A stretch of 64,000 bases of DNA from Candidatus Moraniibacteriota bacterium (GTDB taxonomy: Bacteria > Patescibacteriota > Minisyncoccia > Moranbacterales > GWC2-37-73). Positions 24,179 to 49,327 of this stretch are shown here, piece after piece. Every line of letters begins with the position of its first letter. The first letter of the stretch is position 1. The notes under the pieces were generated by a model. It was not told the DNA's origin. It worked only from the letters and a program-made list of their open reading frames with translations, and made no database searches. The position numbers were made by a program, and so were the translations under genes. Where the stretch lies: assembly GCA_003507445.1 (NCBI GenBank), contig DNVR01000004.1:28243-92242 (forward strand). The letters are read 5' to 3'.

Positions 24179-24236
24179 TATTAAATTTAATAAACTTTAT
24201 AACTTTACAACTTTAAACTTTATAACTTCTACCTAT

Positions 24237-24593
24237 ATGGAACTAGTTTTTTTCTTCAGAATTGCAATGACCGCTGTGGCTTGCGGCTTTTTGTTTAACG
24301 CTTGGTTAAAATTTATCCGCCGCGAAAATTCTCAGACCATTTTCAAGCTTTTTGCCAACAATTTAATTTGGATCGGAATTATTGTTTTTTCACTTTTTCC
24401 ACAAGCAACTCATAACATCTCTCAAAAACTCGGTTTCGGGGAGAGCCTCAACACATTTATATTTATCGGTTTTGTTGTTGTTTTTATGATTATTTTTAAA
24501 ATAATCACAATGATTGAACGCATTGAAAAAAACATCTCAGAAATGGTTCGGAACGAAAGTTTAAACCCAATCAAAAACAATCAACCAAAATGA
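24237..24593 (+). CDS. DUF2304-like small membrane protein
   Basis: 118 aa with 3-4 TM helices, located immediately downstream of a DPM1-like GT2. This is the characteristic context for DUF2304. Confidence 0.5.
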   Translation: MELVFFFRIAMTAVACGFLFNAWLKFIRRENSQTIFKLFANNLIWIGIIVFSLFPQATHNISQKLGFGESLNTFIFIGFVVVFMIIFKIITMIERIEKNISEMVRNESLNPIKNNQPK

Positions 24594-25645: not shown

Positions 25646-25712
25646 TAAATTATTCATTAAATCATTAGGATTTGATTAAAAATTTAAAATTTAAAATTTA
25701 AAATTACCTATT

Positions 25713-26090
25713 ATGTTCTACGTCATCCTCTACACCATCTTATTTTCACTTGTCACGGTCATTTCAATTTTACTGACCGGTTCACGCTCTTTCATCAGCG
25801 GTTCCAATTTAACTCCAATGGCAATTATCAAAATGCTTTTTGATTGGCATTTTCTTTTGGGAGCCACTTTCGCTTTTGCAGCAAGATTATTTTTTATTAT
25901 GATCAACAACAGCCTACTCAAAATTCCAGACCTTGCAGGCAGTTCAACCACAGTCACAACCTTCATCACATCAATTGCAATGGTTTTTGTTATAATCGCC
26001 AATTATTACTTTTTAGGCGAAAAAATAAACACTACCCAAGGCGTGGGAGTGTTTGTAATTTTGTTTGGAATTTTTCTAATAACTCGCTAA
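25713..26090 (+). CDS. small 4-TM SMR/EamA-like membrane protein (ArnE/GtrA-type flippase candidate)
   Basis: 125 aa with four hydrophobic segments. Its size and context match lipid-linked sugar flippase subunits. Confidence 0.45.
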   Translation: MFYVILYTILFSLVTVISILLTGSRSFISGSNLTPMAIIKMLFDWHFLLGATFAFAARLFFIMINNSLLKIPDLAGSSTTVTTFITSIAMVFVIIANYYFLGEKINTTQGVGVFVILFGIFLITR

Positions 26091-33294: not shown

Positions 33295-34449
33295 TTACTC
33301 CTTATTAATAACTTTTTCCAAAAGATTGATTGAATGATTCCAAGTCCAATTTTTTACTGTCTTATAGCCACCTTCAATTAATTTATTCTTCAATTCCCTA
33401 TCATTTATCAACTGCTGGATGGCTTTTTTTGCACCCTCCACATCCCCCTGTTCAACAACGAGTGCATTTTCACCGTCAACAATATATTCGTCATAGCCAG
33501 TCACTTTTCCAACCACCACAGCACAGCCACAAGCCATTGCTTCCATAGGTGGACCAAAAAATCCTTCAATTCTACTCATCTTAAGAAAAATATCGCAAGA
33601 TGAATAAATTTCATTCATTTTATCAAATGGTACGTTTTCAAAAAACTTATCGTATTTCCAATTACTTTTAGGTTTTCCATTGTTACTCACAATCCAAAGT
33701 TCGCAGTCCAAATCCTTTACTGCATTATATGCATCTTCCATACCCTTGTATGGAACATCTATTGAGCCTTCAAGTAAAATTCTAGGCTTTTCTGTTTTAA
33801 CTATTAATGGCTTTGTTTTATAAAACAAATTTTCATCCAATCCATTGGGAACATAATAAGATTCTTTACCACAATCATTTTTTAACCATTTCTGAATCCA
33901 AAGTGCTTCAGTCATATACTCCAAGGGAAGTGAATATGTTTTCTTTATAATACTGCAAAGATCTTCATTATCTGAAAAAAATCTGCTCTCATCTGATTGC
34001 ACAAAATATATTTTTCTTCTTGTTTGAGCCATATCAACAGTAAATGCAGTGCTATATGCAGTTGCAATCAAAATATCAATCTCGCCACTTTTTAATATTT
34101 CTTTTGTTTTATTAAATGGCAAAATTTCAATTTCTTGATCAGGAAACCAACTTGCATCATTTTTATTTGTGAGAGAAAGAATTTTTACATCATATCCCCT
34201 CTTTTTTAATCTATTTGCGTGTTGAAAAATTACCGCAATACCTCCAGAAATTTTTACACCAGGAACAAGATAATAAATTTTCTGCTCTTTACCAGTTTTA
34301 TTTTTAACAGTATTAATAATGGATTTTCTGTTCTCATTAAATTTTTTCCATCTAGAATATTCTCCATCAAAAAAGAAACGGGTTTTAATTGTTTTGCTAT
34401 TTATATATAAATAGCACTTTTTAAAAAATAATATTGAAAATGAATCCAT
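33295..34449 (-). CDS. GT4-family glycosyltransferase
   Basis: 384 aa. The C-terminal domain IEGFFGPPMEAMACGCAVVVG is the GT4 E-x7-E region. Confidence 0.65.
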   Translation of the reverse strand: MDSFSILFFKKCYLYINSKTIKTRFFFDGEYSRWKKFNENRKSIINTVKNKTGKEQKIYYLVPGVKISGGIAVIFQHANRLKKRGYDVKILSLTNKNDASWFPDQEIEILPFNKTKEILKSGEIDILIATAYSTAFTVDMAQTRRKIYFVQSDESRFFSDNEDLCSIIKKTYSLPLEYMTEALWIQKWLKNDCGKESYYVPNGLDENLFYKTKPLIVKTEKPRILLEGSIDVPYKGMEDAYNAVKDLDCELWIVSNNGKPKSNWKYDKFFENVPFDKMNEIYSSCDIFLKMSRIEGFFGPPMEAMACGCAVVVGKVTGYDEYIVDGENALVVEQGDVEGAKKAIQQLINDRELKNKLIEGGYKTVKNWTWNHSINLLEKVINKE

Positions 34450-34634
34450 ACGCTACATATTAGCAAATTGAATAATTAGCACCCTATTAAAAGTATAAAT
34501 TGTATTAAAGATAAACACAACACATGTTAATGCTAGCAATATTGCCAGCAATTGCTTTTTTAATCAAAATATTTTATTATTATATATGTTTCAAACAAAC
34601 TAAGCTACTTTTTTATATATAATATCACTACAAT

Positions 34635-35558
34635 ATGACTGTTATTATTCACGGATCCAATTCAACAAAGAACGCGAAAAAAGCTGCGAAAAAAAATAGT
34701 TTACCAATATTTAAAGCAAAAATGATTTCATTTTCAAATTCAGAATTTAAAATAACCATTGATGGAAAAGTAAAGAACAAAAAATGTATAATAATCCAGT
34801 CTCTTTGCAATCCTACTAATGATAGCATTATTGAGCTTTTTTTTATTATTAATGCGTTAAAAAAAGAAGGTGCCACCTTAGTTAATCTGATAATTCCTTA
34901 TTTTGGATATGCTCGTCAACACAAACAATATCTAAGAGGAGAATGTGTATCATTTGAGGTTTTAGCTACCTGTTTTTTAAGCTTAGGTGTAAAAAAAATA
35001 ACAACCTTTGATGTTCACGATAACAATTCAATTAAAAATTTTTCATTGCCAATAAAAAATATCTCACTACTTCCCTATTTATCAAAAAAAATAAAACCAT
35101 TACTTTTTAAAAAATTCCCCAATTTTAACATTGTAGTTGCCTCACCAGACAAAGGAGGCTTAGCACGAGCCACTCTTTTCAATAAGGCACTAACAAAAAA
35201 TAATACCAGAGTTGTATTTGTAGAAAAAAAACGAAATTACAAAAAAGCTCATGACTCAAGGGCTGTGCTTATCAATGGTGAAGTTTTAAATAAAAATGTA
35301 CTTTTAGTTGATGATATATCTACTAGTGGTGGGACAATAATAAATGCAGCTAACATATGCTTACAAAACGGAGCAAAAAGCGTTTCTGCATTAATAATAC
35401 ATGCCGATTTAGCCATTGGCACAGCTAAAAAACTTCAAGAATCAACGCTTAAGTATATTTTTATTTCAGATACAATCGAAAAACCAATCGAGAATTTAAA
35501 AGGATTTAACAAGTTTACCACAATCCCTATTGGTAATTTTTTTGAGCATATGTTATAA
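34635..35558 (+). CDS. prs: ribose-phosphate pyrophosphokinase (PRPP synthetase), divergent cluster-embedded paralog
   Basis: 307 aa with IIPYFGYARQHKQ (PYfgYARQDR), FDVHDNN (DLHA), VVASPDKGGLARA and LLVDDISTSGGT (PRPP-binding loop), all in canonical order. Confidence 0.75.
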   Translation: MTVIIHGSNSTKNAKKAAKKNSLPIFKAKMISFSNSEFKITIDGKVKNKKCIIIQSLCNPTNDSIIELFFIINALKKEGATLVNLIIPYFGYARQHKQYLRGECVSFEVLATCFLSLGVKKITTFDVHDNNSIKNFSLPIKNISLLPYLSKKIKPLLFKKFPNFNIVVASPDKGGLARATLFNKALTKNNTRVVFVEKKRNYKKAHDSRAVLINGEVLNKNVLLVDDISTSGGTIINAANICLQNGAKSVSALIIHADLAIGTAKKLQESTLKYIFISDTIEKPIENLKGFNKFTTIPIGNFFEHML

Positions 35559-35579
35559 TCTATCAGTATTAATGCAATA

Positions 35580-36467
35580 ATGTGCTCAATCACTATGAAG
35601 AAATTACAATCTTACCTATCACTTATGAGACCAAAACAATGGGTAAAGAATTTATTAATATTTTTACCACTTTTTTTTGGTTTAAAACTTGGGAATATTG
35701 AATATCTCAGCGAAACAACAATCGCATTTGTACTTTTTTCAATGGTGGCCAGTAGCATCTATATTTTTAATGATATTAAAGACGTTGAAGAAGATAGGAG
35801 GCATTATGCAAAGAAAAAAAGGCCAATCGCTTCCTGTCTAATTAGTATACCTCAGGCATATGTCACAATGGCTATATTACTGATAGTGGGATGTTTTTTT
35901 GCGTTACTGGTTGATATTAGAATAGCCCAGTTTATGATTGCATATTTCATATTAAATATATTATATACGATCAAATTAAAAAGAATATCAATTATAGACA
36001 CATTTGTGATTGCTATTGGTTTTGTTATAAGGCTCTATATAGGATCAATTACAGCCCATGTAACATTATCTATGTGGATAGTACTTATGACATTTCTGCT
36101 TGCAATTTTCCTGGCCTTATCAAAAAGAAAAGATGACATTATTATCTTTGAAAATACCGGCAAAGAAACTAGAAAAAATATCCACGGCTATACTGTTGAA
36201 TTTCTAAATCTTTCAATGGTTATAATGGCTTCGATTGTTATGGTTTCATATATAATGTACACAACATCAGCAAGCACCATATTGATGAGACATGGTGATA
36301 AATTATATTTAACTGCCATATTCGTATTATTAGGGATAATGCGCTACATGCAAATAAATATAGTGACCGACGAAAGCAAAACTCCCACGGAAATTCTATA
36401 CGCAGATAAAACTATCCAATTTTCCATAATTGGCTGGATTATGGCTTTATTTTTTATAATGTATTAA
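35580..36467 (+). CDS. UbiA-superfamily polyprenyl-phosphate 5-phosphoribosyltransferase-like (DPPR synthase-like)
   Basis: 295 aa with about 8 TM helices. N-terminal RPKQWVKN and the Asp-rich motif NDIKDVEEDRRHYAKKKRPIASC match the NDxxDxxxDR...K.RP(I/L)A signature of the decaprenyl-phosphate phosphoribosyltransferase (Rv3806c/UbiA) clade. It lies directly after prs. Confidence 0.65.
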   Translation: MCSITMKKLQSYLSLMRPKQWVKNLLIFLPLFFGLKLGNIEYLSETTIAFVLFSMVASSIYIFNDIKDVEEDRRHYAKKKRPIASCLISIPQAYVTMAILLIVGCFFALLVDIRIAQFMIAYFILNILYTIKLKRISIIDTFVIAIGFVIRLYIGSITAHVTLSMWIVLMTFLLAIFLALSKRKDDIIIFENTGKETRKNIHGYTVEFLNLSMVIMASIVMVSYIMYTTSASTILMRHGDKLYLTAIFVLLGIMRYMQINIVTDESKTPTEILYADKTIQFSIIGWIMALFFIMY

Positions 36468-36469
36468 AG

Positions 36470-36919
36470 ATGTTAGCAACAAATAAACAAATACTAGAAA
36501 TATCCAATTCAATTATTATATTAGATATTGACGGAACAATTGTTTCTGATAGCGAATATCACATTGAAGAAGATATACTAGAATTAATAAGCGATTTAAA
36601 AAAAGAAAATACACTTTACCTGTGCTCGAATTCCAAAGATAGCAAAAGAAATACAAAAATAGCGGAAATACTTAATGTCCCACTCATCAATTCACCTCAC
36701 AAAAAACCCAACAAGGCTATTATAGACTACATTAACAACGAAGAAAAAAAGAATATCATTGTCATCGGAGATAAATTCTTAACTGATGGAATTTTTAGTA
36801 AAAACATAAACGCTAAATTCATAAAGGTCAGGAGAATTTCTAATCAAAAAGAAAGATTCATAATAAAGCTGATAAATATAATTGATGATATTGCCTACGC
36901 TATATGGAAAATGATGTAA
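36470..36919 (+). CDS. HAD-superfamily phosphatase (small, DxDxT)
   Basis: 149 aa with ILDIDGTIV (motif I) and VIGDKFLTDG (motif IV-like). Its position suggests dephosphorylation of the 5-phosphoribosyl-polyprenyl phosphate. Confidence 0.5.
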   Translation: MLATNKQILEISNSIIILDIDGTIVSDSEYHIEEDILELISDLKKENTLYLCSNSKDSKRNTKIAEILNVPLINSPHKKPNKAIIDYINNEEKKNIIVIGDKFLTDGIFSKNINAKFIKVRRISNQKERFIIKLINIIDDIAYAIWKMM

Positions 36920-38061
36920 AAAAAATATTAATAGCGCTTTATTACTACCATCCATATGTTAGTGGGGTTTCTGTTTATGCAAAAAGACTAGCTGAGGGTC
37001 TTGCGGCTAATGGATTCGATGTAACTATACTAACAACTCAGTTTAAAAAAAGATTACCAGCTCAAGAAACAATAAACGGTGTAAATATTGTTCGATGTCC
37101 AGTTTTATTTAAATTAGGAAAAGGAGTTATATCTCCATTTTTTTTACTTAAAATAATCTCGTTTTCAAAAAATTATAACATAGTAAACATGCATCTGCCA
37201 TTAGCAGAATCTGGTATTGCATCATTATTTATTCCTAAACAAAAAATGATTACAACATACCATTGTGATATTAATTTAGGTAAAAAAATTATTTCCAAAT
37301 TTATTGAAAAACTTTCTTTTATTTCGATGCATATAGCATTGAAAAGATCACGAGCTATTATTACACAAAATATCGATTATTTTTTACACTCCAAAATGGC
37401 TACTTACACAGAAAAAGCAGTAGAAATAATACCTCCTATTTTCACAGAAGAATACACTAGGGATGATAATATTGAATTCTTAAAAAATAAGTTTGATTTA
37501 AAAAATGAATTTATTATTGGCTTTGTTGGCAGAATAGTTTATGAAAAAGGAATAAAATACCTCCTTGAGTCAATTGAGTATTTAATACCACATATATCAA
37601 AATTCAAGATTGTACTCGCAGGAGATTATAAAAATGTTGCAGGAGGAAGTGTTAAAAATGAACTTGATAGTTTCATAAAAAAATATCCTAACAAAGTTAT
37701 TTTTACTGGATTTCTTTCGGATGAGGAGATGATTCCATTCTATTCATTAATTAATGTCTTAGTTCTCCCAAGTATCGATCCCCTTGAAGCCTTTGGTATG
37801 GTGCAAGTTGAAGCAATGTCATGTGGAACGCCCGTTATCGCAAGTAATCTCCCTGGCGTTAATTCTATCATAAAAAAAACAGGTTTCGGATTTATTAGCG
37901 AACCCGGTAACCCTAAAGATATTGCAGAAAAAATTATAAAAGTATATAAAAAAGAATACACATCAATTGGGTTCAAAAAAGAAGAATGGGATGCAAAAAA
38001 TGTAATAAAAAAATATTCTACAATTTTTATTCAAGGTACCCTAAAAGAAAAAAATAAATAA
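36904..38061 (+). CDS. GT4-family glycosyltransferase
   Basis: 385 aa with PSIDPLEAFGMVQVEAMSCGTPVIASNLPG (E-x7-E). A 16-nt overlap with the upstream gene. Confidence 0.7.
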   Translation: MENDVKKILIALYYYHPYVSGVSVYAKRLAEGLAANGFDVTILTTQFKKRLPAQETINGVNIVRCPVLFKLGKGVISPFFLLKIISFSKNYNIVNMHLPLAESGIASLFIPKQKMITTYHCDINLGKKIISKFIEKLSFISMHIALKRSRAIITQNIDYFLHSKMATYTEKAVEIIPPIFTEEYTRDDNIEFLKNKFDLKNEFIIGFVGRIVYEKGIKYLLESIEYLIPHISKFKIVLAGDYKNVAGGSVKNELDSFIKKYPNKVIFTGFLSDEEMIPFYSLINVLVLPSIDPLEAFGMVQVEAMSCGTPVIASNLPGVNSIIKKTGFGFISEPGNPKDIAEKIIKVYKKEYTSIGFKKEEWDAKNVIKKYSTIFIQGTLKEKNK

Positions 38062-38086
38062 TCTATTTATAGTTATTAATAAAAAA

Positions 38087-38779
38087 ATGAATAACAAAAA
38101 ATACGACAGCGATTACTTCAAAAAAAATAGCCAGAGCGATGACCGACTTGCTCTTTATTTTTTTTCAGACATTTTAAAAAAATATTTTAAAAGTGGTAAA
38201 ATTCTTGAATATGGTTGTGGGACAGGATTTTTTATTAAAAAATTTACAGCTAAAAAATACGAAAAAAGTGCTTTTGATATCTCAGAATATGCCATGAATC
38301 AAACAAGAGAAAATAATTCTGATGTTTTAATATTAAAAGATCCATGGAAACAGACACTGGATAATTCATTAGATTGTATTGCTTCTTTACATGTTTTAGA
38401 ACATATTAGCAATCCAAGTGAAACTCTCAGTAATTTCAATACTAAATTAAAAAGCGGTGGCATACTTTTTTTTATTGTTCCAAATACAAGCTCTATGGGC
38501 AGGAAATTAAAAAGAAAAATATGGTTTGGATATAGGGATGAAACACATATTTCTCTTTTAAATCCAACTGAGTGGCGAAGAAAAACAACTGAAGCTAATT
38601 TTGAAATTATAAAAATTGGAACGGATGGACTTTGGGATATTCCTTATTTCAAAACAATACCAATATTTATTCAAAAGCTCATATTTTATCCTACGGCAGC
38701 AATACAGATATGGACAAAGAGTATTTTTCTGCCCCTGTTTTTAGGTGAAAATTTAATAATTATTGCTAAAAAATTATGA
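38087..38779 (+). CDS. class I SAM-dependent methyltransferase
   Basis: 230 aa. ILEYGCGTGFF is the GxGxG SAM motif I. Confidence 0.65.
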   Translation: MNNKKYDSDYFKKNSQSDDRLALYFFSDILKKYFKSGKILEYGCGTGFFIKKFTAKKYEKSAFDISEYAMNQTRENNSDVLILKDPWKQTLDNSLDCIASLHVLEHISNPSETLSNFNTKLKSGGILFFIVPNTSSMGRKLKRKIWFGYRDETHISLLNPTEWRRKTTEANFEIIKIGTDGLWDIPYFKTIPIFIQKLIFYPTAAIQIWTKSIFLPLFLGENLIIIAKKL

Positions 38780-39135
38780 ACACATTTCTGCTCTTTGCAA
38801 CTGGTATAATCCTTGGTTCTTTTGGCGGTGTTTTATTGAAAGCTGGATCAAAAAATATCCTCTTTTCTGGAACTATAACAAAAGAATTACTCCTAAGCTT
38901 ATTACTTAATTGGAAAATATTTCTTGGTCTTATTTGCTACTTTATACCAGCAATTATATGGATATTTCTCCTAAGAAAATATCCACTGAGTTTTGTACAA
39001 CCAATCCTGGCATTAACCTACGTTATAACACCAATTCTCGCAATTTTAATACTTAAAGAAGGAATACCACCAGCAAGATGGCTTGGAATAATTATAATTA
39101 TTATTGGTGTTTTTATTATATCAAAAACACAATAA
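38776..39135 (+). CDS. SMR/EamA-like 4-TM small membrane protein (ArnE/ArnF-like lipid-linked sugar flippase candidate)
   Basis: 119 aa with four TM helices. Motifs GGVLLKAGSK and FVQPILALTYVITPILAILILKE resemble ArnE/ArnF. A 4-nt ATGA overlap with the methyltransferase gene. Confidence 0.55.
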   Translation: MNTFLLFATGIILGSFGGVLLKAGSKNILFSGTITKELLLSLLLNWKIFLGLICYFIPAIIWIFLLRKYPLSFVQPILALTYVITPILAILILKEGIPPARWLGIIIIIIGVFIISKTQ

Positions 39136-39147
39136 AATGATCGACTA

Positions 39148-41148
39148 TTAACGATGTTTAAATAAAATCATTGAGTATTTACTATTAATAGAGTTTTCAC
39201 TTTCAAATACAATCTCATATTCTCCGCTCATATTTTCCAATAAAAATTTAGAATAAACAGAGTTCTTATAAACGAGTATGTTTTTTGGAGACATACTTTT
39301 TACTTTGTTTATCCACTCTCGCTGCTCTTCTATTGATAATGTACTAAGTTGAGCTGGACCACCTGGCCATCTATCATTTTTTGTTCCCGGAAGAAATTCC
39401 ACTACATTACTATATTTCCTATTCCATAATAATCCATGATAAGTGTTAACATTCCATACTAAAACATCATTTTTACCACTATTATCACGAATAAATTTAA
39501 TAATGTCTGGCATGGGATAACTATCATATCCCATTGTATTTTTTTCAAGTGCAAGAGATGACCTTGTCTTCCAAGATATCCCAGCACTGTCCAACGACCC
39601 TATCCATCCCAAACTTTTTTTCATATAAGAAAAAGGCACTAGCAACGTCATCATACATACCAACATGATAAAAAATCTAATTTTTTTTATATTTGAACCG
39701 ACTACAAATTGTTGAAAAAACGCCACGGCTATAATTATAGCAAGAGCAAACATTGGAATACCATATCGTGGCAAGAAGAAACCTGGGATGAGAAAGGAAG
39801 CAAAAAAAGCTACCGACAATATTTTAAACCATTTTTTTTTAGTAAAAAAAACATACACTGAATAAAAAAATGCAAAGAAAACAGCTACCACAATAAACAC
39901 CAGCCCTGTAGAACCAAATGAATCAGCATTTAAAGGATTAAGTATGTCAATCCAGGAAGCATAATATCTTTGAAAATATCCCATTTTAGAAACGACTCCC
40001 ATGGTACTATTTCCACCAATTCCAAAATCTCCTGAATCAACAATTCCATTAAAAAAATTAACATTAAATATCTTCAACCCTAGTGGATATATAGGATTAT
40101 CATATAAAAACCAATTTTTTATATACTGCAAATTAGCTAAAAATACGATTAGAAGGAAAAGAAAACCTTTTTTTGTATATATAATTGTTATTATTTTCCT
40201 TAAAAAATTATTGCGATTATTAACATAAATAAGCTTTGCAAAAAATAAAACGCCTAGATATAAAAACACCGTAATGGGAATTTTTATTATTGATGCCAAA
40301 GCTATTGCCAAAGCTACAAATATTAAATTTCTCTGAATATTTTCTTTTTTAAGAGGGGTTAAAAAAGCAATCATAGCTATAATTGAAGCAGCATAGTCAA
40401 TGTCAATATATCCTGTAGTTGAAAGTAAAAAAAAGATAGGCATTGAAATAAATATGCCAATTGCATACAAAGACCAAGCCTGAGAGATACCACTTCTCCT
40501 TGCTAATACGTATATTGCAGTTAATAACTGTAGACCAAATATAAACTGAACTCCATTAAATAACAGGTCTGAATTTGTAAGCTGCAATGTCCAATACCAT
40601 ATTATTTCCGCACCTTTTGGATAAAGATAAGTCCAAGGTAAATCACTATCAATTTTACCCAAAACACCATCTTGATATGGTTGGACTGCCATAGGAATAT
40701 GATACGAAAGAACATCAGAACCACCATTTGGATTTAAAAAAATTGCAAATAAAAAATAGCATACTAACACAAGCGCCATAAGCAACACAAAAATCCTTGT
40801 TACTAAATCCATTTTTTTAAATATTATAACGACTGCTTTACTGACTTCAAAAAAGGATTCTCTCCATGCAACCACCTTATTTTTTATTGGTGAAGCAAAA
40901 ACAAAAAGACTAACCGCAACGACATGAAAAAGCCATAGATAATGTAATGGTTTTATAATTGGAAATTGAGACAAAATAAATACTTCTGATATTATAAAAA
41001 GAAAACTAAACAAAAATGCTGCTAAAAATCTTTCCGATAATAAAAATTCCCTATTTTTTCCCATAACAACAACGACATTCCAAAAAACAACAAACGCGGA
41101 TGCAAGTGTCAAGAAAAATAAAACGATATTTATAAATTCTATGGTCAT
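39148..41148 (-). CDS. large GT-C-fold polytopic membrane glycosyltransferase candidate with C-terminal soluble domain
   Basis: 666 aa. The first 500 aa are multi-TM and the C-terminal 160 aa are soluble. It converges on the prs-ubiA-HAD-GT4-MTase-SMR operon. Confidence 0.45.
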   Translation of the reverse strand: MTIEFINIVLFFLTLASAFVVFWNVVVVMGKNREFLLSERFLAAFLFSFLFIISEVFILSQFPIIKPLHYLWLFHVVAVSLFVFASPIKNKVVAWRESFFEVSKAVVIIFKKMDLVTRIFVLLMALVLVCYFLFAIFLNPNGGSDVLSYHIPMAVQPYQDGVLGKIDSDLPWTYLYPKGAEIIWYWTLQLTNSDLLFNGVQFIFGLQLLTAIYVLARRSGISQAWSLYAIGIFISMPIFFLLSTTGYIDIDYAASIIAMIAFLTPLKKENIQRNLIFVALAIALASIIKIPITVFLYLGVLFFAKLIYVNNRNNFLRKIITIIYTKKGFLFLLIVFLANLQYIKNWFLYDNPIYPLGLKIFNVNFFNGIVDSGDFGIGGNSTMGVVSKMGYFQRYYASWIDILNPLNADSFGSTGLVFIVVAVFFAFFYSVYVFFTKKKWFKILSVAFFASFLIPGFFLPRYGIPMFALAIIIAVAFFQQFVVGSNIKKIRFFIMLVCMMTLLVPFSYMKKSLGWIGSLDSAGISWKTRSSLALEKNTMGYDSYPMPDIIKFIRDNSGKNDVLVWNVNTYHGLLWNRKYSNVVEFLPGTKNDRWPGGPAQLSTLSIEEQREWINKVKSMSPKNILVYKNSVYSKFLLENMSGEYEIVFESENSINSKYSMILFKHR

Positions 41149-41169
41149 TTTATTATTAATTATAATTTA

Positions 41170-42579
41170 TTATTTTTTCAATGATGGAAATATTTTAATA
41201 AAACGACTTCTTAATTCATCTTGATTTGCATTTGATTCTAGCAATATTTTCAAGTCAGCGACCACCTCATTTATATCCATCGGACATTCTTCATGATTTT
41301 TTAGTTGAAAAACATTATCAATTTCAGTTTTAACTAAGTTTCCCATTTCTTTTTCTGTAAATAGCTCCTCGATCATTTTTTCACCATCCTTAAGACCTAT
41401 AATATTAATTTCAACATCCTCATCTGGAATTAAATTCTTTGTTCTGATTAAACAAAGTGCTGCTTCATATATATTAATTAATTCTCCCATATCAAGGATG
41501 TAAATTTCACCATGATTATCACGTGCAATACTAGTTACAACAAGTTGTGCAGCTTCACGAATTGACATAAAAAAACGTCGTACATCTTTATGAGTCACTG
41601 TTATTAATCGATTCTCTCTAATCTGGCGTTCAAACAAAGGCAATACTGAGCCATTTGAATTAATGACATTTCCAAAGCGTACAATATTAAATTTTGTCTT
41701 TGAATCTCCAATACATTTAATGTAATATTCTGCTAACTTCTTTGTTGATCCCATAATGCTGGTTGGATTAACAACTTTGTCAGTTGAAATAAAAATAAAA
41801 TTCTTTATCTCATTTTCAATTGCAGCATCAACCACATTTTTTGTGCCTATCACATTGTTCATTATGGCTTCATCAATATTATCCTCCATCAAATATACAT
41901 GTTTATACGCTGCTGCATGAAAAATAAAATCTGGCTGTTCTTCTTTGATAATGCTACTCATTTTCTCACGATTTAAAATACTGCCAATCACGAGTCTATA
42001 TTTCTCTTTCGGAATATTTTTTTCTTTTAAATTTTGATCGATATTAAAAATAAGATATTCCGAATTATCATAAACAACAACTTTTTTGACACCAAGGTCA
42101 ATAAGTTGTCGAACAATTTCACTTCCAATTGAACCAGCTCCTCCAGTTATAAAAACTATTTTATTATTATAAAATTCTTTAAGCTTTTCAACATTTTGTT
42201 TCAAAAATGGCCTTCCAAGAAAATCTTCTAGAGCGAAATCTTTCACGTCAGCATACTTAACATCATTTTGCCCTATGACATGTTGTGAGCGTGGAACCAA
42301 TCTAATTTTAGTCCTGTTCTTAAGACTATTTAAGAGAATTTTCCTCATCAATTCTCCATCAGCTGAAGGAATTGCAATAATTATCTCATCAATTTTGTAG
42401 ATTTTACTTATTTTTGATAATTCCTCTATTTTTCCAATAACATTCAAACCAATCTCCACTAACTCTTGATCATCAACAAAGCCAATAATCTTAGCATCAT
42501 TAACATTTTTTTCTATATCTTCTTTTAACAACTTGCCGGCTATCCCAGCACCCACAATAAGAATATTTCTATAGTCCAT
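41170..42579 (-). CDS. UDP-N-acetylhexosamine 4,6-dehydratase, CapD/PglF/WbpM-like (soluble form)
   Basis: 469 aa. An N-terminal Rossmann-like linker domain (ILIVGAGIAG) is followed by the SDR catalytic domain IVFITGGAGSIGSEI with HAAAYKHV (YxxxK). Confidence 0.75.
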   Translation of the reverse strand: MDYRNILIVGAGIAGKLLKEDIEKNVNDAKIIGFVDDQELVEIGLNVIGKIEELSKISKIYKIDEIIIAIPSADGELMRKILLNSLKNRTKIRLVPRSQHVIGQNDVKYADVKDFALEDFLGRPFLKQNVEKLKEFYNNKIVFITGGAGSIGSEIVRQLIDLGVKKVVVYDNSEYLIFNIDQNLKEKNIPKEKYRLVIGSILNREKMSSIIKEEQPDFIFHAAAYKHVYLMEDNIDEAIMNNVIGTKNVVDAAIENEIKNFIFISTDKVVNPTSIMGSTKKLAEYYIKCIGDSKTKFNIVRFGNVINSNGSVLPLFERQIRENRLITVTHKDVRRFFMSIREAAQLVVTSIARDNHGEIYILDMGELINIYEAALCLIRTKNLIPDEDVEINIIGLKDGEKMIEELFTEKEMGNLVKTEIDNVFQLKNHEECPMDINEVVADLKILLESNANQDELRSRFIKIFPSLKK

Positions 42580-42584
42580 ATAAG

Positions 42585-43433
42585 TTATATATTTAAATAT
42601 TTTTTAATTACATCCGAATTTTTTTCATAAAAAAATGCAGTCTTTTTTAAGCCCTCTTCCATAGAAATCAGTTTAACTTTTTCAAGCAAAACATTATTTC
42701 CCAATGGGCATAGATTATTTTCCGTATTTTTCTTATCAATAATTTCAATCTCTTTTATAAAAACTTTTTTCTTACAAATTTCAAGCAAATCACCAATTGA
42801 AATAAGTTTTCCAGTTGCCAAATCTGTTTTACCATAAAAATCATTTTCAATAACCGAGCGCACAAACTTTGCCATATCTTCTGCGTATATAAAATCTCTT
42901 TTAGCACTCATATCATTTATTTCAATTGGTATATTATTTTGGTAATTAAACAAAATATTTGCAATTAGACTTCCTTGTTTATATGGAATCTGAAATTTTC
43001 CATAAATGTTAAATAATCTTAAAATCGTTAGATTGATATTATTTTTTTCACAATAATCCTCATAAAACTTTTCTAATATAATTTTTCTTTTAGCATACGG
43101 TGATTCTGAATTTGCATAAATGACCGCGGAAGAAAATAGGATGAGATGACTGTTTTTTAAAAATCCAATATTTTCAATTAGTTTTAATTCTTCTTTCTCA
43201 AATTCATCATCTAAAACTTGATTATCGATGAGATGAACATAGGCATCAAATTTTTTAAGATTTTTATCTTTATATGCATTTCCCTCAATAAAAACATCTT
43301 TTCTACCTGAACCGAAGACGGATTCTTCTATGCCTAAAGAATAGCAAGAAAAAACATCAGATAATTCAGCTGCGATATTTCTACCAATGAAACCCTCCCC
43401 ACCCAGGATTAAAATTTTCTTTTTATTATTCAT
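42585..43433 (-). CDS. NAD(P)-dependent epimerase/reductase, SDR family (short)
   Basis: 282 aa with ILILGGEGFIGRNI (Rossmann) and SPYAKRK (YxxxK). Confidence 0.55.
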   Translation of the reverse strand: MNNKKKILILGGEGFIGRNIAAELSDVFSCYSLGIEESVFGSGRKDVFIEGNAYKDKNLKKFDAYVHLIDNQVLDDEFEKEELKLIENIGFLKNSHLILFSSAVIYANSESPYAKRKIILEKFYEDYCEKNNINLTILRLFNIYGKFQIPYKQGSLIANILFNYQNNIPIEINDMSAKRDFIYAEDMAKFVRSVIENDFYGKTDLATGKLISIGDLLEICKKKVFIKEIEIIDKKNTENNLCPLGNNVLLEKVKLISMEEGLKKTAFFYEKNSDVIKKYLNI

Positions 43434-46400
43434 TTATATTTTCATACAAATTTTTATATTTATCAGCAAGAATTTCAATAGAGAAGTTTTCCTCCACTGA
43501 TTTTCTGGCATTTTTAGAAATTTTCTCTAAAATTTCCTTTTGTGATAAAACATACTCAATTTTTTCAACAAGTTCACTTGGGGAATTAGGTTGCATTAAA
43601 AATCCAGTCTCTGCATCTTTTATTGCATCACTAACACCACCAACATCAGAAGCAATAACACAAACACCCATAGCCATAGCCTCCACATTTGAAAGAGGAA
43701 AACCTTCAGCTTTAGATGGTAACACAAAAATATCGGCGGTGCTCAAATAACAAGGTATATCAGCTTGATAACCCAAATAACTTAGGTTTTTGTCTCCAAA
43801 TTCATTAATTGTTTTTTCAATTTCCATTCGCATTGGGCCATCTCCAATGACAAAGAATTTTATATTAACACCATTGTCCAAGACTTTCTTTGCAGCTTCA
43901 ACAAAAATATCTGGATTTTTTTCTGGCGAAAGCCTGCCCATAAAATATACAGCTATGTCATCCTTATTGATGTTTAGTTTTTCACGCTCAGCTAATCGAT
44001 CATACAAAACTGGATTGAATTTCCCATTACAATCAATGCCATTATAAATAACTATTTTTTCCTTACTACTTATTGCTGATTGTTCATCATAAGCCTTCAA
44101 GACTTTCGTATTATCAGTTGTATATATATCAATAAAATCAGCATATTTAATTGAATTATTAAAGTGATCAGCAACAACGTTAAATACCGTACTTATAACT
44201 TTCAATCTTGGAAATCTCTTTCTCAGATCTGGAAGCATTTCATAAAAACTGCTGTTATGAACAATATGGAGCACATCGATTTTCCTGCTTTCAATATAAT
44301 TAGCAACAAAGTTAAAATATTCTTCTTCTCTTAGAAATAAATTTGGCAAATGATAAATATTATTAGTAACTTCTTTGAATTTATATTCCCATTCATTTTC
44401 ACTTTTAAGTCCAGTTATGATTGAGATATTGAAATCATTTTTTATTTTTGAACAATAGTTATATACAAGAGTTTCAGCCCCACCAAAAGTAAGCCAGGGC
44501 ATCAAAATAAGAACGTTTTTCTTTTCTTTTTTCCCTTGAAGATACTCCTTTGAATTTTTAAGATTAACAAACTGACTATTATCCTCGAAAATATTTCTCT
44601 GCATAATCCAATTTTCCTTAAGCTCTTTAATCCTCTTTAAGTATCTAGGATGTAATTTTTTTATTTTTTCAATATTTTCATCTCTTTTTTTCTTATCATC
44701 AATATAGCGAGATTCTACAGCTCTACGATAATTGAATACTGGCTCAGGGAAAAGTCTTGCTTTCGATCCATTTTCCACAAGATTAATCCAAAACTCCCAA
44801 TCTTCAAAACCAATACCGCGCTTGTACCCACCACTCTTCTCCCATACACTTTTCCTGAATACAGAGGCAGTTGTTATGATATTTGAAGAATACAAAAGCT
44901 GTGGATCAAATTCTGGCTCTTCGAAAATTCTTTCTTCAATGCCAAAAAAATTCATGTGTGAATATACAATATCAATATCAGGATTAGATTCCAACACAAC
45001 AAGCATTTTTTCCAAATAAGTAGGAGCGATAATATCATCAGAATCTAAGCATAGGATGTATTTTCCTTTTGCCTTAATGATTCCATTGTTTCTGCCCGCA
45101 GCCACACCCTGATTTTCCTGCGTAATCTTAATAATTTTTGGATGATTTATTTTTTCAAATACAATATTACTCTCAGCATCGGTTGAACCATCATTAACAA
45201 TGATGTATTCAAAGTTTTGAAACGTTTGGCCAAGCACACTCTCCACTGTTTCACCAAGGGTTTTTCCATGATTAAAAAATGGTGTAACAACTGAAATAAG
45301 TATCCCTTCCCATTTTTCATTTTTTACTTTTTTAGCCAAAACGCGATATCTTCTTGGTAAATATGGTCTAATAACTGAACGAATTTCCTCGCTTAAATAT
45401 TTTTTTGCTAAACAAACAATGCGTCCCTCTATTTTATTTCTTAATGATCTAAAACTATACACCACATTCCTTAGTATATATCTCAATTTAATTGCTGGTG
45501 TTACAACTCTTGAATGATACAGGTCATGAAGCTCATCTGACTGTTTCTGTATAATGAGTTCATTTTTTTGAATAACAATATCTTTTTTAACAATATCTTT
45601 TTTAAATTCATTATTGTCAATTAAACATTCGCTCAAAATTTCCGACATATTATTTGGAAATTTTAACAATATTTCATTTATCATCCCTGATTTTTCTTTT
45701 TTGTCTATTTCAATAATAACATTTAACAGATAATTCACGTGATAAGAAATTATCTGCCTATATTCCAAGTTTTTTCCAAAAAGTTTCAACAACTCAAAAT
45801 ACATAGCAATGAAAGAAACACCGTGTTTTTTAAACAACCCCTCTTTATTGCCATGAGAATCCCACCATATTCCGCCAGAATGTCTTCTATAAGCAGACAT
45901 AGTCTTATCTATAAATCCAATTTTTCCAAATTTTGCATGATAGAGATGTAAGTACCAGTCACCAGGAACAATATTGATTTTTGGTAAATCTTTATAATTC
46001 TGCCTTCGATACATCACCGACATCGTTGGTATAAAATTATTTTTTAACAAAGACAATGTTGTTAATTCTGGAAGATCAACGGCTCTTGGGTATATAGATT
46101 TCGCACCTTCTTTATTTTCAAAAAAAATCTTTACCGAATGAAAGCACACGGCATAATCCAGATTTTTATCCAAAAAATCAACTTGCAATTGCAATTTATT
46201 TTCATCAATAAAAAAATCATCCCCATCGCAAATTACTATGTATTTCCCATTAGCACAACGGAGCGTATCAAAAAAGTTTTCCGTTGTTCCAATATTTTTT
46301 TCTCTAAATATTGGCTTAATTACATTTGGATATTTTTTTTCAAATTCTTTTATAATTTCTCTTGTTTTATCAGTAGAACAATCTTCACCAATAATTATTT

Positions 46401-46509
46401 CGAAATCAAAATTTGCTTTTTGCATTATAAAACTTTCCAGTGTTTGCTGGATAAATTTTTCATGATTATACGCCACACAAACTATGGAAACTATTGGCTT
46501 ATTACTCAT
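43426..46509 (-). CDS. tri-domain GT2-GT2-GT4 fusion glycosyltransferase
   Basis: 1027 aa. Domain 1 has IVSIVCVAYNHEKF...IIGEDCSTD...CDGDD. Domain 2 has ISVVTPFFNHGKT...IIVNDGSTD...LDSDD. Domain 3 has NVLILMPWLTFGGAE ... KAEGFPLSNVEAMAMGVCVIASDVGG (GT4). Confidence 0.7.
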   Translation of the reverse strand: MSNKPIVSIVCVAYNHEKFIQQTLESFIMQKANFDFEIIIGEDCSTDKTREIIKEFEKKYPNVIKPIFREKNIGTTENFFDTLRCANGKYIVICDGDDFFIDENKLQLQVDFLDKNLDYAVCFHSVKIFFENKEGAKSIYPRAVDLPELTTLSLLKNNFIPTMSVMYRRQNYKDLPKINIVPGDWYLHLYHAKFGKIGFIDKTMSAYRRHSGGIWWDSHGNKEGLFKKHGVSFIAMYFELLKLFGKNLEYRQIISYHVNYLLNVIIEIDKKEKSGMINEILLKFPNNMSEILSECLIDNNEFKKDIVKKDIVIQKNELIIQKQSDELHDLYHSRVVTPAIKLRYILRNVVYSFRSLRNKIEGRIVCLAKKYLSEEIRSVIRPYLPRRYRVLAKKVKNEKWEGILISVVTPFFNHGKTLGETVESVLGQTFQNFEYIIVNDGSTDAESNIVFEKINHPKIIKITQENQGVAAGRNNGIIKAKGKYILCLDSDDIIAPTYLEKMLVVLESNPDIDIVYSHMNFFGIEERIFEEPEFDPQLLYSSNIITTASVFRKSVWEKSGGYKRGIGFEDWEFWINLVENGSKARLFPEPVFNYRRAVESRYIDDKKKRDENIEKIKKLHPRYLKRIKELKENWIMQRNIFEDNSQFVNLKNSKEYLQGKKEKKNVLILMPWLTFGGAETLVYNYCSKIKNDFNISIITGLKSENEWEYKFKEVTNNIYHLPNLFLREEEYFNFVANYIESRKIDVLHIVHNSSFYEMLPDLRKRFPRLKVISTVFNVVADHFNNSIKYADFIDIYTTDNTKVLKAYDEQSAISSKEKIVIYNGIDCNGKFNPVLYDRLAEREKLNINKDDIAVYFMGRLSPEKNPDIFVEAAKKVLDNGVNIKFFVIGDGPMRMEIEKTINEFGDKNLSYLGYQADIPCYLSTADIFVLPSKAEGFPLSNVEAMAMGVCVIASDVGGVSDAIKDAETGFLMQPNSPSELVEKIEYVLSQKEILEKISKNARKSVEENFSIEILADKYKNLYENINE

Positions 46510-46519
46510 ATTTTTTTAA

Positions 46520-47779
46520 TTATAAACATTCCATGCCATCTAGATCAAACACGGGAATTTTTAAATTTTTAAAGACAATATTTCTTTCAGAAAATGAATC
46601 ATCTATAAATATTGACTCGGGTTTAATAAACCCAAATTTATGTTCATCATTTTCAATATGAATAATTTCAGCAAATAACTCTTTGGATATCTTACAATAT
46701 TCTAAGCTTTTATATATATCTCCCGAGTGTTTTGTTATTAGAAATACTGATTTATTTTTATTTAAACATCTATATATAAAAGCAATAACACTTACATTAA
46801 CATTTCCATTTTTTAATACCAATGTATCATCAAAATCAATATACACATTTTTATAAGATATATCCATCTTATATTTAGCACTTAAAGACCTATCAATCTC
46901 AATATTAAAATCATTTAACAATATAGAAACATTAACATCCATGAGATCATACAAGCTTAATAATGGTAGATTTACACCTCGCACCCTGGACAGAGACATT
47001 GTCCCAGCAACACGTGGAGAAATTTCCAGCAATACCAATTTACCATCTGCACGCTCTTTGAGTTGAAAAAACCAAACACCCCTAAACACCAACGTACTAT
47101 TTATCTTATTTGCTATTTCTAAAAATATCTCATTATTCTCTAATCGAGAATTTACACTAATACCATTTGATACGCGAACCCTCTCCCTACCTTGAGCAAA
47201 AAGTAAAACGCCTTCTTTGTTTGTAAAGCAATCAATGGTATATTCTTTGCCTGGTAAATATTCCAACAGCATTAGTGATGCATCTCTCCTTATTGAAAAC
47301 CTAACTTCTTCAATATTATTAGCTTTAAAAGTGCCCTTTGACCCCTGTCCGATATTGGGTTTCAAAAATATTGGGAATTTTAAATTATCTTCAATATTGA
47401 AAACGATGGGCGTGTCTATTATATTTTTAAATAATTCGTATGTATCTTTTTTTGATCTACAAATTTTACATGTCTTAAATGGAGAAGTTACTACAATTGC
47501 ACCTATTCTTTCTTGATTTTGTGAAAGATTCAAAACAACACTATCATGAGCAGGAAAAATAAAGTCAATTTTATACTTTTTTACAACTTCACAAATAGCA
47601 TCGATAAAATTATCATCCTCTACAAATGGAATTTTTGATATATAATTTTCATAAACAAAAAGACCATGGTCATCCACTGAGGATGCACCATACAAATTAA
47701 AGTCTTTTGAAAATTCCAACGACCTTCCTATTTCTAGCCCAATTTCACTTCCACATGGGAAAACTAATACATTTTTCAT
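46520..47779 (-). CDS. ATP-grasp domain protein with C-terminal HAD-like domain
   Basis: 419 aa with FPIFLKPNIGQGSKGTFKA (ATP-grasp central domain) and LLEISPRVAGT. The C-terminal VYIDFDDTLVLKNG is DxDxT. Confidence 0.55.
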   Translation of the reverse strand: MKNVLVFPCGSEIGLEIGRSLEFSKDFNLYGASSVDDHGLFVYENYISKIPFVEDDNFIDAICEVVKKYKIDFIFPAHDSVVLNLSQNQERIGAIVVTSPFKTCKICRSKKDTYELFKNIIDTPIVFNIEDNLKFPIFLKPNIGQGSKGTFKANNIEEVRFSIRRDASLMLLEYLPGKEYTIDCFTNKEGVLLFAQGRERVRVSNGISVNSRLENNEIFLEIANKINSTLVFRGVWFFQLKERADGKLVLLEISPRVAGTMSLSRVRGVNLPLLSLYDLMDVNVSILLNDFNIEIDRSLSAKYKMDISYKNVYIDFDDTLVLKNGNVNVSVIAFIYRCLNKNKSVFLITKHSGDIYKSLEYCKISKELFAEIIHIENDEHKFGFIKPESIFIDDSFSERNIVFKNLKIPVFDLDGMECL

Positions 47780-47788
47780 TAATTTGTT

Positions 47789-49327
47789 TTATTTTTTAAA
47801 TAAATCGCCAAGATTATTTACAACAATAGCAGGAAATGCATCTTGAGATATTTTTTCTAAATCTATCCTATTGGTTTCTCCTGATAAAACACAAACAAAA
47901 TCTATCCCAGCATTATCAGCAAGCCTTTTATCAGTATGCAGCCTGTCACCTACAATTGCCAACTTTTCTTTACCGTATTTTTTTATTTGTTTTTCAATTA
48001 ACGAAACCGATGGCTTCCCTAATATCATTTGAGGATAAAATCCGTTTGTTTTTTCTATAAGTGCCATTATTGAACCAATATCTGGAATTGGACCATTTTC
48101 ACTTGGGCAAAAGGAGTCTGAGTGAGTAGCAATATAATCTACTCCTTTTTTATTTAACAAAATAACCGCTTTTTTCAATTTATCATAAGTAATTTCATCA
48201 TCATAAGTTAAAATAACTGCTTGATTTCTATTTAAATCATATTCGATTGATACCCCAGGTAATTCTTTTTTAATGAATGATTTTACTTGTTTATTTGCAA
48301 TTAAATATAAAGATGTATACCGCATTGTCTTAATATAATCAATCAACGAAAAAAGTGGTGTGGTAATCTGATTTTCACTAACAGAAATACCAAACTTAGA
48401 TAATTTTTTAATGTAATCATTAGGAACTTTTGAAGTATTATTAGTTAAATAATAGAAATCAAAAATGTTGTCATTCTCTCTTACAAAATTTACAGCACCT
48501 TCTATCGAAGTATTTCCTATACAAAGAGTGCCATCTATATCGCAAATAAAAGCTTTTTTAGCTCCATAATTAAATCTGGAAAAAATTTTATCCGCTACTG
48601 ATAAATCATCTAGATTATCAATTTCAACCCAATTATATTTCCTTACATCAAAAGGCAGAACATTAACAATTCTAAATAAAACAGGGAATGAAACTTCTGT
48701 CCACTGATTTAAGTCCTTCTTGATCTCAATAAATTCACCAATTATTTTTAACAATAACTTTGCAGATTGGTAGCTATATTTATATAAATCTACTGAAACA
48801 CCTGCCGACTTAGAAGGTGAAATATTTTTAGAAATATCTACTATGTTTCCAGATTCAGAAAGTTCAATTTTCATTGATTCCTCTATATATACTCCCCTTT
48901 TTATAGCAATTGCATTATCTAGACCACAGTTTACGAATTCGTATATTAATTTTTCATCATAAACACAATCAGCGTTATTTATAAATAATGTATCGAATTT
49001 AGATTTACCTTCATTTATATATTTTAACGCAATGTATAGAGAATACATATTATTAGTAGTTCTATAATTACTATTTTCCAAAATCTTAACTTTTGGATAT
49101 TTAAAATTAATATATTCATTTATCTTATCAGAAAAATATCCTGCAACAATTACAATATCTTCTTCTCTTAGCCCAGCTTTTAGGTATCCATCTATTTGAT
49201 ATTCTATTATTGATTTTCCACCCACGCACACTAAAGACTTTGGCTTAATATCCGTAATTGGTGCAAGCCTACTTCCAATACCCGCAGCAAGAATTATCAC
49301 TTTTTTATAATCTTTCATCTTTGACAT
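47789..49327 (-). CDS. bifunctional sugar/alcohol-phosphate nucleotidyltransferase (LicC/GCD1-like) + HAD-IIA phosphatase
   Basis: 512 aa. The N-terminus VIILAAGIGSRLAPIT is a nucleotidyltransferase G-loop. The C-terminal half carries FICDIDGTLC ... GKPS ... VGDRLHTDKRLADNAG, which are HAD-IIA motifs. Confidence 0.65.
   Translation of the reverse strand: MSKMKDYKKVIILAAGIGSRLAPITDIKPKSLVCVGGKSIIEYQIDGYLKAGLREEDIVIVAGYFSDKINEYINFKYPKVKILENSNYRTTNNMYSLYIALKYINEGKSKFDTLFINNADCVYDEKLIYEFVNCGLDNAIAIKRGVYIEESMKIELSESGNIVDISKNISPSKSAGVSVDLYKYSYQSAKLLLKIIGEFIEIKKDLNQWTEVSFPVLFRIVNVLPFDVRKYNWVEIDNLDDLSVADKIFSRFNYGAKKAFICDIDGTLCIGNTSIEGAVNFVRENDNIFDFYYLTNNTSKVPNDYIKKLSKFGISVSENQITTPLFSLIDYIKTMRYTSLYLIANKQVKSFIKKELPGVSIEYDLNRNQAVILTYDDEITYDKLKKAVILLNKKGVDYIATHSDSFCPSENGPIPDIGSIMALIEKTNGFYPQMILGKPSVSLIEKQIKKYGKEKLAIVGDRLHTDKRLADNAGIDFVCVLSGETNRIDLEKISQDAFPAIVVNNLGDLFKK

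Follow-up and report, generated by a model that had tools for sequence, protein, structure and literature searches.

A probable three-component pentofuranose glycosylation module, fed by phosphoribosyl pyrophosphate, in a cell-surface glycopolymer locus of Candidatus Moranbacteria

Does a member of the candidate phyla radiation (CPR) make a lipid-linked pentofuranose from phosphoribosyl pyrophosphate (PRPP) and transfer it to a polymer at its surface? This question is raised by a 64,000-nucleotide stretch of DNA, referred to here as the window (contig DNVR01000004.1, positions 28,243 to 92,242), in which six consecutive genes on the + strand encode a PRPP synthetase (Prs), a UbiA-like membrane enzyme, a small phosphatase of the haloacid dehalogenase (HAD) superfamily, a family 4 glycosyltransferase (GT4), a methyltransferase and a small protein with four transmembrane segments (4-TM), while the gene for a 666-residue GT-C fold glycosyltransferase converges on them from the opposite strand. 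The host is a CPR/Patescibacteria organism, Candidatus Moranbacteria, an ultra-small groundwater bacterium: proteins identical to the UbiA-like and HAD proteins are present in a Rifle aquifer metagenome, and the NCBI record of the HAD is a hypothetical protein of a Candidatus Moranbacteria metagenome-assembled genome (MAG). The region is probably a three-component pentofuranose glycosylation module set within a cell-surface glycopolymer locus. A first-pass annotation of the window had proposed that PRPP is converted into polyprenyl-P-5-phosphoribose and then polyprenyl-P-ribose, which is flipped and used by a GT-C enzyme, and the evidence from family, fold and synteny predicts that this route is largely right. 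The open reading frames (ORFs) of the cluster lie exactly where they had been reported, the motifs quoted from them are directly readable in the translations, and the Pfam and NCBIfam assignments are consistent with every gene call of the operon, in which the intergenic gaps from prs to the 4-TM gene are 21, 2, −16, 25 and −4 bp. Family and fold assignments, the conservation of PRPP contacts, synteny and co-occurrence are all observed directly, the last two by comparison with a syntenic Moranbacteria MAG (L084), a locus of Candidatus Peregrinibacteria (L012), 77 GTDB loci from other phyla (L004-L083) and the further loci named below.

The UbiA-like protein (35580..36467, with the start at 35595 in public gene calls) finds its best NCBIfam models in the decaprenyl-phosphate phosphoribosyltransferase (DPPRS) equivalogs NF008977 (227.1 bits, cutoff 234) and NF008978 (199.4 bits, cutoff 207), and scores 186 bits against the model of HAD-UbiA fusions. 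The sole strong match in a phmmer search of the PDB is the cryo-EM structure of M. tuberculosis Rv3806c (8j8j, E 1e-37, residues 13-289 of the query against 18-294 of the chain), to which the protein is 29% identical. Rv3806c contacts PRPP through R22, K28, Y70, N73, D77, K87, R90, Q135, Y138, K143 and Y157 (PMC10994848). Nine of these 11 residues are identical in the window protein (R17, K23, Y61, N64, D68, K78, R81, Y129 and K134), the two substitutions being Q135 to N126 and Y157 to F148, where some mycobacteria also have a phenylalanine, and the contact positions are invariant in 20 homologues. The family has more than 5,800 homologues, many of which, in Moranbacteria, Peregrinibacteria, Dojkabacteria, Nitrospirota, Sulfurovum and others, are named “decaprenyl-phosphate phosphoribosyltransferase” by NCBI. 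The protein had been placed in the DPPRS clade and apart from MenA, UbiA and CyoE, and its predicted assignment as a polyprenyl-phosphate 5-phosphoribosyltransferase (PPPRS/DPPRS, Rv3806c family) is well supported by its sequence.

Two base pairs downstream, the HAD gene (36470..36919) encodes a 149-residue protein matched by PF09419 (PGP_phosphatase) and TIGR01668 (YqeG-type), a small capless phosphatase of the HAD-IIIA class. All four catalytic motifs are kept across 18 homologues (D19-x-D21-G-T, S53/N54, K79 and G100-D-K-x-L-T-D106), with D19, D21, G22, K79 and G100-D101-K102..D106 invariant and T23 and S53 nearly so. Its structure, modeled with a pLDDT of 92, comprises no more than a capless core; a profile search of the PDB gave no informative relative (E>=0.005), and the top Foldseek matches of the model, all weak, are T4 PNKP, CTDNEP1 and lipin, capless HADs whose substrates are large molecules or lipids. 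A word-limited search returned at least 23 relatives, and all those with a source name are from CPR. A UbiA-family gene lies no more than two genes from this HAD in eight of ten loci (the window, L084, L086, L012, L087, L088, L089 and L091). In L012, a 298-residue protein (10837-11733) fuses a GtrA/DPMS transmembrane domain to a HAD part that is 42.5% identical to the window HAD, and it sits directly downstream of a UbiA homologue and upstream of a 3-beta-HSD-like epimerase of the short-chain dehydrogenase/reductase (SDR) type. A HAD of a different type, PF12710, adjoins UbiA in 42 of the 77 DPPRS-homologue loci from other phyla; a homology search of the 64-kb window found no homologue of it, and no sequence match was found between the window HAD and the HAD domain carried by a Rhizobium fusion protein. 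The association of this HAD with UbiA, together with the PF12710 HAD beside UbiA in other phyla, thus allows us to infer strongly from context that the HAD, as had been proposed, belongs to the route and is its 5-phosphatase, acting on polyprenyl-P-ribose-5-phosphate. It seems to stand in, without being orthologous to either, for the mycobacterial Rv3807c and for the phosphoribose phosphatase (PRP) domain found in Citrobacter.

PRPP itself would be supplied locally by the product of the first gene (34635..35558). By family profile and motifs this protein is a divergent, class I-like PRPP synthetase: it scores 232.5 bits against TIGR01251 (cutoff 113), while staying under the cutoff of all lineage-specific equivalog models, and from end to end it can be aligned with class I enzymes of known structure, 3dah, 6nfe and 1dkr (E 1e-38 to 1e-40), an alignment in which the ribose-5-P loop (DDISTSGGT), the Lys/Arg-bearing flexible loop (EKKR) and SPDKGG (SPDxGG) are kept. 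It departs from the canonical enzymes at RQDR(K/R), which reads RQHKQ, and at QIQGFF, which reads SIKNFS. The same departures are seen in the L084 counterpart (9036-9959), whereas the L088 protein reads RRQDHEE in place of the canonical motif, and such changes could mean altered regulation or specificity. The window Prs is 61.6% identical to that of L084 but only 26% identical to that of L088. In all three loci, prs lies directly upstream of UbiA-HAD while the flanking genes differ, and this recurrence around prs genes of such low identity argues for functional coupling.

The operon ends with the candidate flippase, a 119-residue 4-TM protein (38776..39135). Hydropathy gives it four hydrophobic segments, and it matches PF00892 (EamA) as well as the NCBIfam profiles ArnF (E 1e-9) and ArnE (E 4e-9), both below cutoff. 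Homologues that are 48-52% identical are likewise last in the operon in L084 and L088, as is a weaker one in L089. The earlier description of this protein as ArnE-like is thus borne out, and the locus contains a predicted small flippase of the ArnE/F-like type, which along with the SMR/GtrA type is one of the kinds expected in a three-component system. Between HAD and flippase stand two genes that are conserved as well. The GT4 gene (GT-B fold, PF00534 and PF13439, 36904..38061) overlaps the HAD gene by 16 nt and has orthologues, 60-61% identical, at the same position in L084 and L086. The product of the second is a predicted S-adenosylmethionine-dependent methyltransferase (PF13489, E 4.9e-23, 38087..38779) with a 37% identical homologue at the same position in L088, where L084 has an FkbM-type methyltransferase; a C-terminal membrane anchor, considered for this protein, was not supported by hydropathy. 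The substrate of these two enzymes may be the acceptor polymer, or else the lipid-linked sugar, which they would then elaborate.

The GT-C protein (39148..41148, − strand) had been reported to converge on the operon, which it does; a GT-C fold transferase, the proposed pentofuranosyltransferase, is thereby present in the locus. No Pfam or NCBIfam model describes its family, although a full-sensitivity profile search recovered 4216 cluster representatives at E<=1e-3, of which 142 remain at E<=1e-30. No carbohydrate-binding module match was detectable in it, and comparison by hhalign with the rest of the large membrane proteins in the window and with a Rhizobium candidate GT-C gives probabilities below 5%. 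One member of the family, 29% identical, adjoins a HAD-UbiA fusion of the ORF15 type described below. The GT-C gene is the last of a converging operon that recurs in the window, L084 and L095 in the order giant glycosyltransferase, SDR, CapD-like dehydratase and GT-C. In the window, these neighbors, assigned with Pfam and NCBIfam and all on the − strand, are a 1027-residue GT2-GT2-GT4 polymerase-like enzyme (43426-46509), its counterparts in L084 and L095 being 54% identical, an SDR that is the reductase partner of the dehydratase (42585-43433) and a CapD/PseB-like 4,6-dehydratase (41170-42579), a context of backbone synthesis. The ATPase of an ATP-binding cassette (ABC) transporter, Wzt with its Wzt_C domain, is encoded at 51684-52919 and an ABC-2 permease at 59676-60452.

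Taken together, these genes suggest the following scheme, in which every enzymatic activity is predicted, as are the lipid carrier, the acceptor and the kind of sugar. Prs would convert ribose-5-P and ATP into PRPP, from which the UbiA-fold enzyme would transfer 5-phosphoribose to polyprenyl phosphate, giving polyprenyl-P-beta-D-ribofuranose-5-P. The capless HAD-IIIA phosphatase would strip the 5-phosphate at the membrane surface, the ArnE/F-like 4-TM protein would flip polyprenyl-P-ribofuranose to the outer face, and the ArnT-like GT-C would move the pentofuranose onto a polymer for which the co-transcribed GT2-GT2-GT4 enzyme may be the synthase and the Wzm/Wzt-type ABC transporter the exporter.

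Which sugar would be transferred depends on whether the lipid-linked ribose is epimerized. The first-pass annotation had seen no DprE1-type oxidoreductase, and indeed tblastn with the DprE1-like and DprE2-like neighbors of homologous UbiA genes found nothing in the 64 kb at E<=0.01, so that the 2'-epimerase pair of the mycobacterial pathway to decaprenyl-phosphoarabinose (DPA) is absent from the window. A search of the same 64 kb for GtrA homologues was also negative. The SDR at 42585-43433, which had been offered as a possible 2'-epimerase, is unlikely to be one and was rejected: it travels always with the CapD-like dehydratase and the giant glycosyltransferase, and its best match is a UDP-4-keto-6-deoxy-HexNAc reductase. 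Likewise, an “Epimerase” gene in the L084 operon was considered as an ORF13-like pentose epimerase lost from the window, and was rejected as a GDP-mannose 4,6-dehydratase (TIGR01472, 403.6 bits). Two CPR loci, L012 and L087, do combine UbiA with an SDR epimerase of the 3-beta-HSD-like kind, which shares 34-37% identity with its counterpart in the Rhizobium candidate system; the window contains no close relative of it, only a product encoded at 60504-61460 that matches the Rhizobium epimerase weakly (25% identity, E 1e-19). As neither the DprE1/DprE2 pair nor a locus-linked SDR epimerase is found in the window, the ribofuranose would most likely be transferred without epimerization, as in Citrobacter youngae O1, unless epimerases are encoded elsewhere in the genome. 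In other phyla the neighbors of UbiA include an adh_short SDR in 36, an FAD_binding_4 oxidase in 31 and GtrA in 28 of the 77 loci, which is the DprE1/E2-type arabinofuranose route. In Campylobacterota (Sulfurovum, Sulfurimonas), Nitrospirota, Spirochaetota and gut Prevotella/Segatella (including S. copri and S. salivae), the UbiA homologue is usually found beside PF12710 HAD, FAD_binding_4, adh_short and GtrA, a full DPA-like set outside Actinobacteria.

The points that weigh against the proposed module are best considered together with the alternatives to which several of them lend support. The whole analysis is in silico, and the UbiA-like protein scores just below the curated cutoffs of both DPPRS models. 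It could instead be a conventional prenyltransferase for quinone, heme O, chlorophyll or archaeal lipid synthesis, which would make the locus unrelated to PRPP. The protein does belong to PF01040 (87.9 bits) and has the shared NDxxDxxxD motif. Yet the conventional models (UbiA, CyoE/CtaB, DGGGPS, chlorophyll synthase and EboC) give at best 57.5 bits against 227 for DPPRS, the next PDB family after Rv3806c (E 1e-37) is DGGGP synthase at E 1.4e-5, and the phosphoribose-binding residues conserved here are not conserved across the wider UbiA superfamily (PMC10994848). Profile scores, PDB match and PRPP contacts thus separate the protein from the quinone and heme prenyltransferases, and this alternative is effectively refuted. 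The phosphatase is open to a different objection. A cytoplasmic glycosyltransferase (GT4, GT9-like or GT2) overlaps or abuts this type of HAD in every locus examined, so that the HAD could serve a glycosyltransferase-phosphatase pair, an established design, instead of the pentose pathway. It might then partner the overlapping GT4, as in the synthesis of sucrose-phosphate or glucosylglycerate, or act on a phosphorylated lipid-linked glycan, with the 5-phosphate removed by another enzyme or not at all. L093, where the HAD stands beside GT2, Bac_transf and Wzy_C and no UbiA lies within 7 kb, fits this explanation, as does L092, which has the same neighbors on a contig that ends just upstream. We nevertheless consider it improbable, given the UbiA gene within two genes in most loci, the GtrA-HAD fusion directly after UbiA in L012, the UbiA-HAD-flippase set of L089 in which no glycosyltransferase stands between or after the genes, and the need of the pathway for a phosphatase when no PAP2 (Rv3807c-type) or PF12710 HAD match is present among the window ORFs scanned. 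The conserved GT4 and methyltransferase, for their part, are not accounted for by the three-component scheme as published.

The genome may contain a second prs beyond the 64-kb window, and it is quite possible, if somewhat less than probable, that the prs beside UbiA is not a pathway-dedicated paralog, as had been claimed, but the sole housekeeping PRPP synthetase of the organism, placed next to a glycan operon by chance. CPR genomes are small and often hold core genes as single copies, prs is missing from the UbiA-HAD loci L086, L087, L089, L091 and L012, and the protein satisfies the general subfamily model and aligns along its whole length with class I enzymes. Against chance stand the adjacency of prs and UbiA in three CPR lineages with differing flanks and divergent prs genes (the 26% identity between window and L088), its occurrence in only one of the 77 loci elsewhere, and the loss of the canonical RQDR(K/R) and QIQGFF motifs; even a single prs could be functionally coupled to the operon. 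Epimerases, too, may lie outside the window, in which case the pathway would be the same but its ribose would be turned into arabinofuranose or xylofuranose, either by those enzymes or by the generic extended SDR at 60504-61460. The DprE1-like FAD_binding_4 and DprE2-like adh_short neighbors of the closest homologues in other phyla, the SDR epimerases of L012 and L087 and the weak Rhizobium match of the 60504-61460 product all speak for such a step. We find it rather unlikely, since nothing resembling DprE1/E2 occurs anywhere in the 64 kb, the syntenic L084 also lacks both and has a GDP-mannose 4,6-dehydratase as its extra SDR, and the 60504-61460 product, 21 kb away, scores best as a GalE or dTDP-glucose dehydratase-like protein. 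Concerning the last component, a GT-C family member in L094 has no UbiA within 8 kb and is accompanied by a small GT2-type donor synthase instead, so this family is not restricted to pentose donors, and the window GT-C reaches an hhalign probability of just 0.4% against the Rhizobium CCGE531 candidate GT-C (Kelly et al. Fig. S12).

The module with ribofuranose as its sugar has a close published parallel. In Citrobacter youngae O1/O2, biochemical and genetic proof has been given that side chains of alpha-ribofuranose or xylofuranose are added by a three-component system (Kelly et al., PNAS 2024, PMC11127046). There, ORF15 combines a UbiA-fold PPPRS and a HAD phosphoribose phosphatase in one protein, ORF12 is an ArnT-like GT-C and the founder of CAZy GT136, and ORF14 is a small flippase, termed ArnEF-like in passages of the supplement and “MATE” in the paper; the sugar is set by an optional SDR epimerase, ORF13, or by DprE1/E2 homologues (PMC11127046). 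In the main text and supplementary passages, the pathway is called widespread and predicted in Gram-negatives, Gram-positives and phage, with candidates in Burkholderia, E. coli, Rhizobium, Xanthomonas, Bacillus and phage, and these same parts make no mention of CPR (PMC11127046). Our search of a phage collection gave one match only, unannotated and 6.6 kb in size, and a literature search for a lipid-linked pentofuranose pathway in CPR/Patescibacteria found nothing relevant. Like the C. youngae locus, the Moranbacteria locus has a predicted UbiA-fold PRPP-dependent synthase, a putative HAD-superfamily 5-phosphatase, an ArnE/F-like flippase, an ArnT-like GT-C and ABC-transporter genes, and it resembles the O1 form, which adds ribofuranose, in having no epimerase. 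It differs in that the phosphatase is a separate gene for a capless HAD-IIIA/YqeG/PF09419 protein and not a fused, capped PRP domain, in that the operon is headed by prs and contains a conserved GT4 and methyltransferase, and in its host, CPR being absent from the candidates named in the legend of Fig. S12 (PMC11127046). The GT-C may be of another sequence family as well, to judge by the Rhizobium CCGE531 candidate.

The likeness extends to other systems. The pathway to DPA in mycobacteria and corynebacteria (Rv3806c UbiA, Rv3807c, DprE1/DprE2, Rv3789, Emb/Aft) starts with a homologous enzyme whose PRPP contacts are shared, and has the same flow from lipid-linked 5-phosphoribose through dephosphorylation and flipping to GT-C. 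In the pilin arabinosylation of Pseudomonas (para)aeruginosa PA7/Pa5196 (PsPA7_6246-6249, TfpW), a non-actinobacterial DPPRS homologue is again combined with a GT-C for extracytoplasmic pentofuranosylation, but that system has DprE1/E2 homologues, D-arabinofuranose oligomers and a pilin target, whereas the Moranbacteria window is without the epimerase pair and its context points to a polysaccharide acceptor. The combination of a lipid-P-sugar synthase, a small flippase and a GT-C is also that of ArnC/ArnE-ArnF/ArnT, which handles undecaprenyl-phosphate-linked 4-amino-4-deoxy-L-arabinose, and of GtrA/GtrB/GtrC. The Moranbacteria flippase and GT-C are closest to ArnE/F and ArnT; in the Arn and Gtr systems, however, a GT2 enzyme makes the donor out of a nucleotide sugar, and the Moranbacteria donor would instead come from PRPP by a UbiA-fold enzyme and a phosphatase.

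The locus had been put forward as an undescribed system, which it is not: the same three-component pentofuranose system has been demonstrated experimentally in C. youngae (PMC11127046), and NCBI already names homologues in CPR MAGs. The Moranbacteria module is a CPR variant of the system published in 2024, distinct in its phosphatase class, its operon-linked divergent prs, its conserved extra glycosyltransferase and methyltransferase, and a GT-C from a large family that lacks a Pfam model. A bolder proposal, which we offer tentatively and which is unlikely to hold in full, is that of a self-contained CPR variant that would combine a polyprenyl-P-ribose-5-P phosphatase of a third class, not orthologous to the other two (a capless HAD-IIIA that in some cases is joined to GtrA), with a divergent and possibly deregulated Prs dedicated to PRPP for glycans, and with a GT4 and methyltransferase that may make a methylated or disaccharide lipid-linked ribose donor before flipping, for use by a GT-C of a large unnamed family.

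The window contains further GT-C-type proteins, which by Pfam are three PMT_2 proteins, a DUF6056/GT_STM0557_N protein and a DUF2142 protein. The suggestion that the GT-C paralogs as a group are wired to the pentose donor is supported for the 666-residue enzyme, which is tied to the operon by synteny, and is not supported for the others, which have plausible donors of their own because polyprenyl-P-hexose synthases of the ArnC/PgfS-like (GT2, 19507-20448) and PpgS/AglJ-like (GT2, 23452-24135) types are encoded in the window. The latter is followed by a DUF2304 protein (24237-24593), a second GT2 (24590-25645), a 4-TM protein corresponding to half of EamA (25713-26090) and the DUF6056/GT_STM0557_N GT-C (26087-27415). 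The interval 23452-27415 therefore looks like a separate, independent three-component module of Gtr/Arn and hexose type, and a GT2-based Arn/Gtr-like system apparently exists in the same window as the PRPP-based one. Two of the PMT_2-type genes lie in tandem at 6883-10414 with a 47-nt overlap and about 31% mutual identity, while the third (11539-13347) is barely related to them; Metallophos genes flank the PMT_2 genes at 10411-11193 and 13571-14632.

Downstream of the giant glycosyltransferase gene lie genes for an ATP-grasp protein (46520-47779), a nucleotidyltransferase-HAD fusion (47789-49327) and a TagF-like CDP-glycerol glycerophosphotransferase (49315-50589), which suggest a teichoic-acid-like or amino-acid-modified polymer. 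Between the Wzt ATPase and the ABC-2 permease are genes for a 23S rRNA intervening-sequence protein (52988-53377), a Fic protein (53545-54591) and an 1182-residue LCAT/PGAP1-like alpha/beta hydrolase (56015-59563), along with small ORFs without matches. The window is AT-rich, and its GC content reaches a minimum of 28-30% across the glycan locus (34001-52000) compared with 33-40% in the flanks, as fits a variable or horizontally exchanged surface-glycan island. An Rfam scan of the window found no RNA families, and a promoter and terminator scan was uninformative, its counts being near shuffled expectation.

If the proposed module is real, PRPP-derived lipid-linked pentofuranose glycosylation extends to the CPR, a group about whose surface chemistry, probably decisive for attachment to host cells, next to nothing is known. 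The prevalence of DPPRS homologues with DprE1/E2-like neighbors in Campylobacterota, Nitrospirota, Spirochaetota and gut Prevotella/Segatella implies, moreover, that donors of D-arabinofuranose or other pentofuranoses occur well beyond Actinobacteria. The analysis points to a new type of phosphatase for the 5-dephosphorylation step, gives a functional lead for a GT-C family with thousands of members and no Pfam model, and suggests that the supply of PRPP can be wired into a glycan operon.

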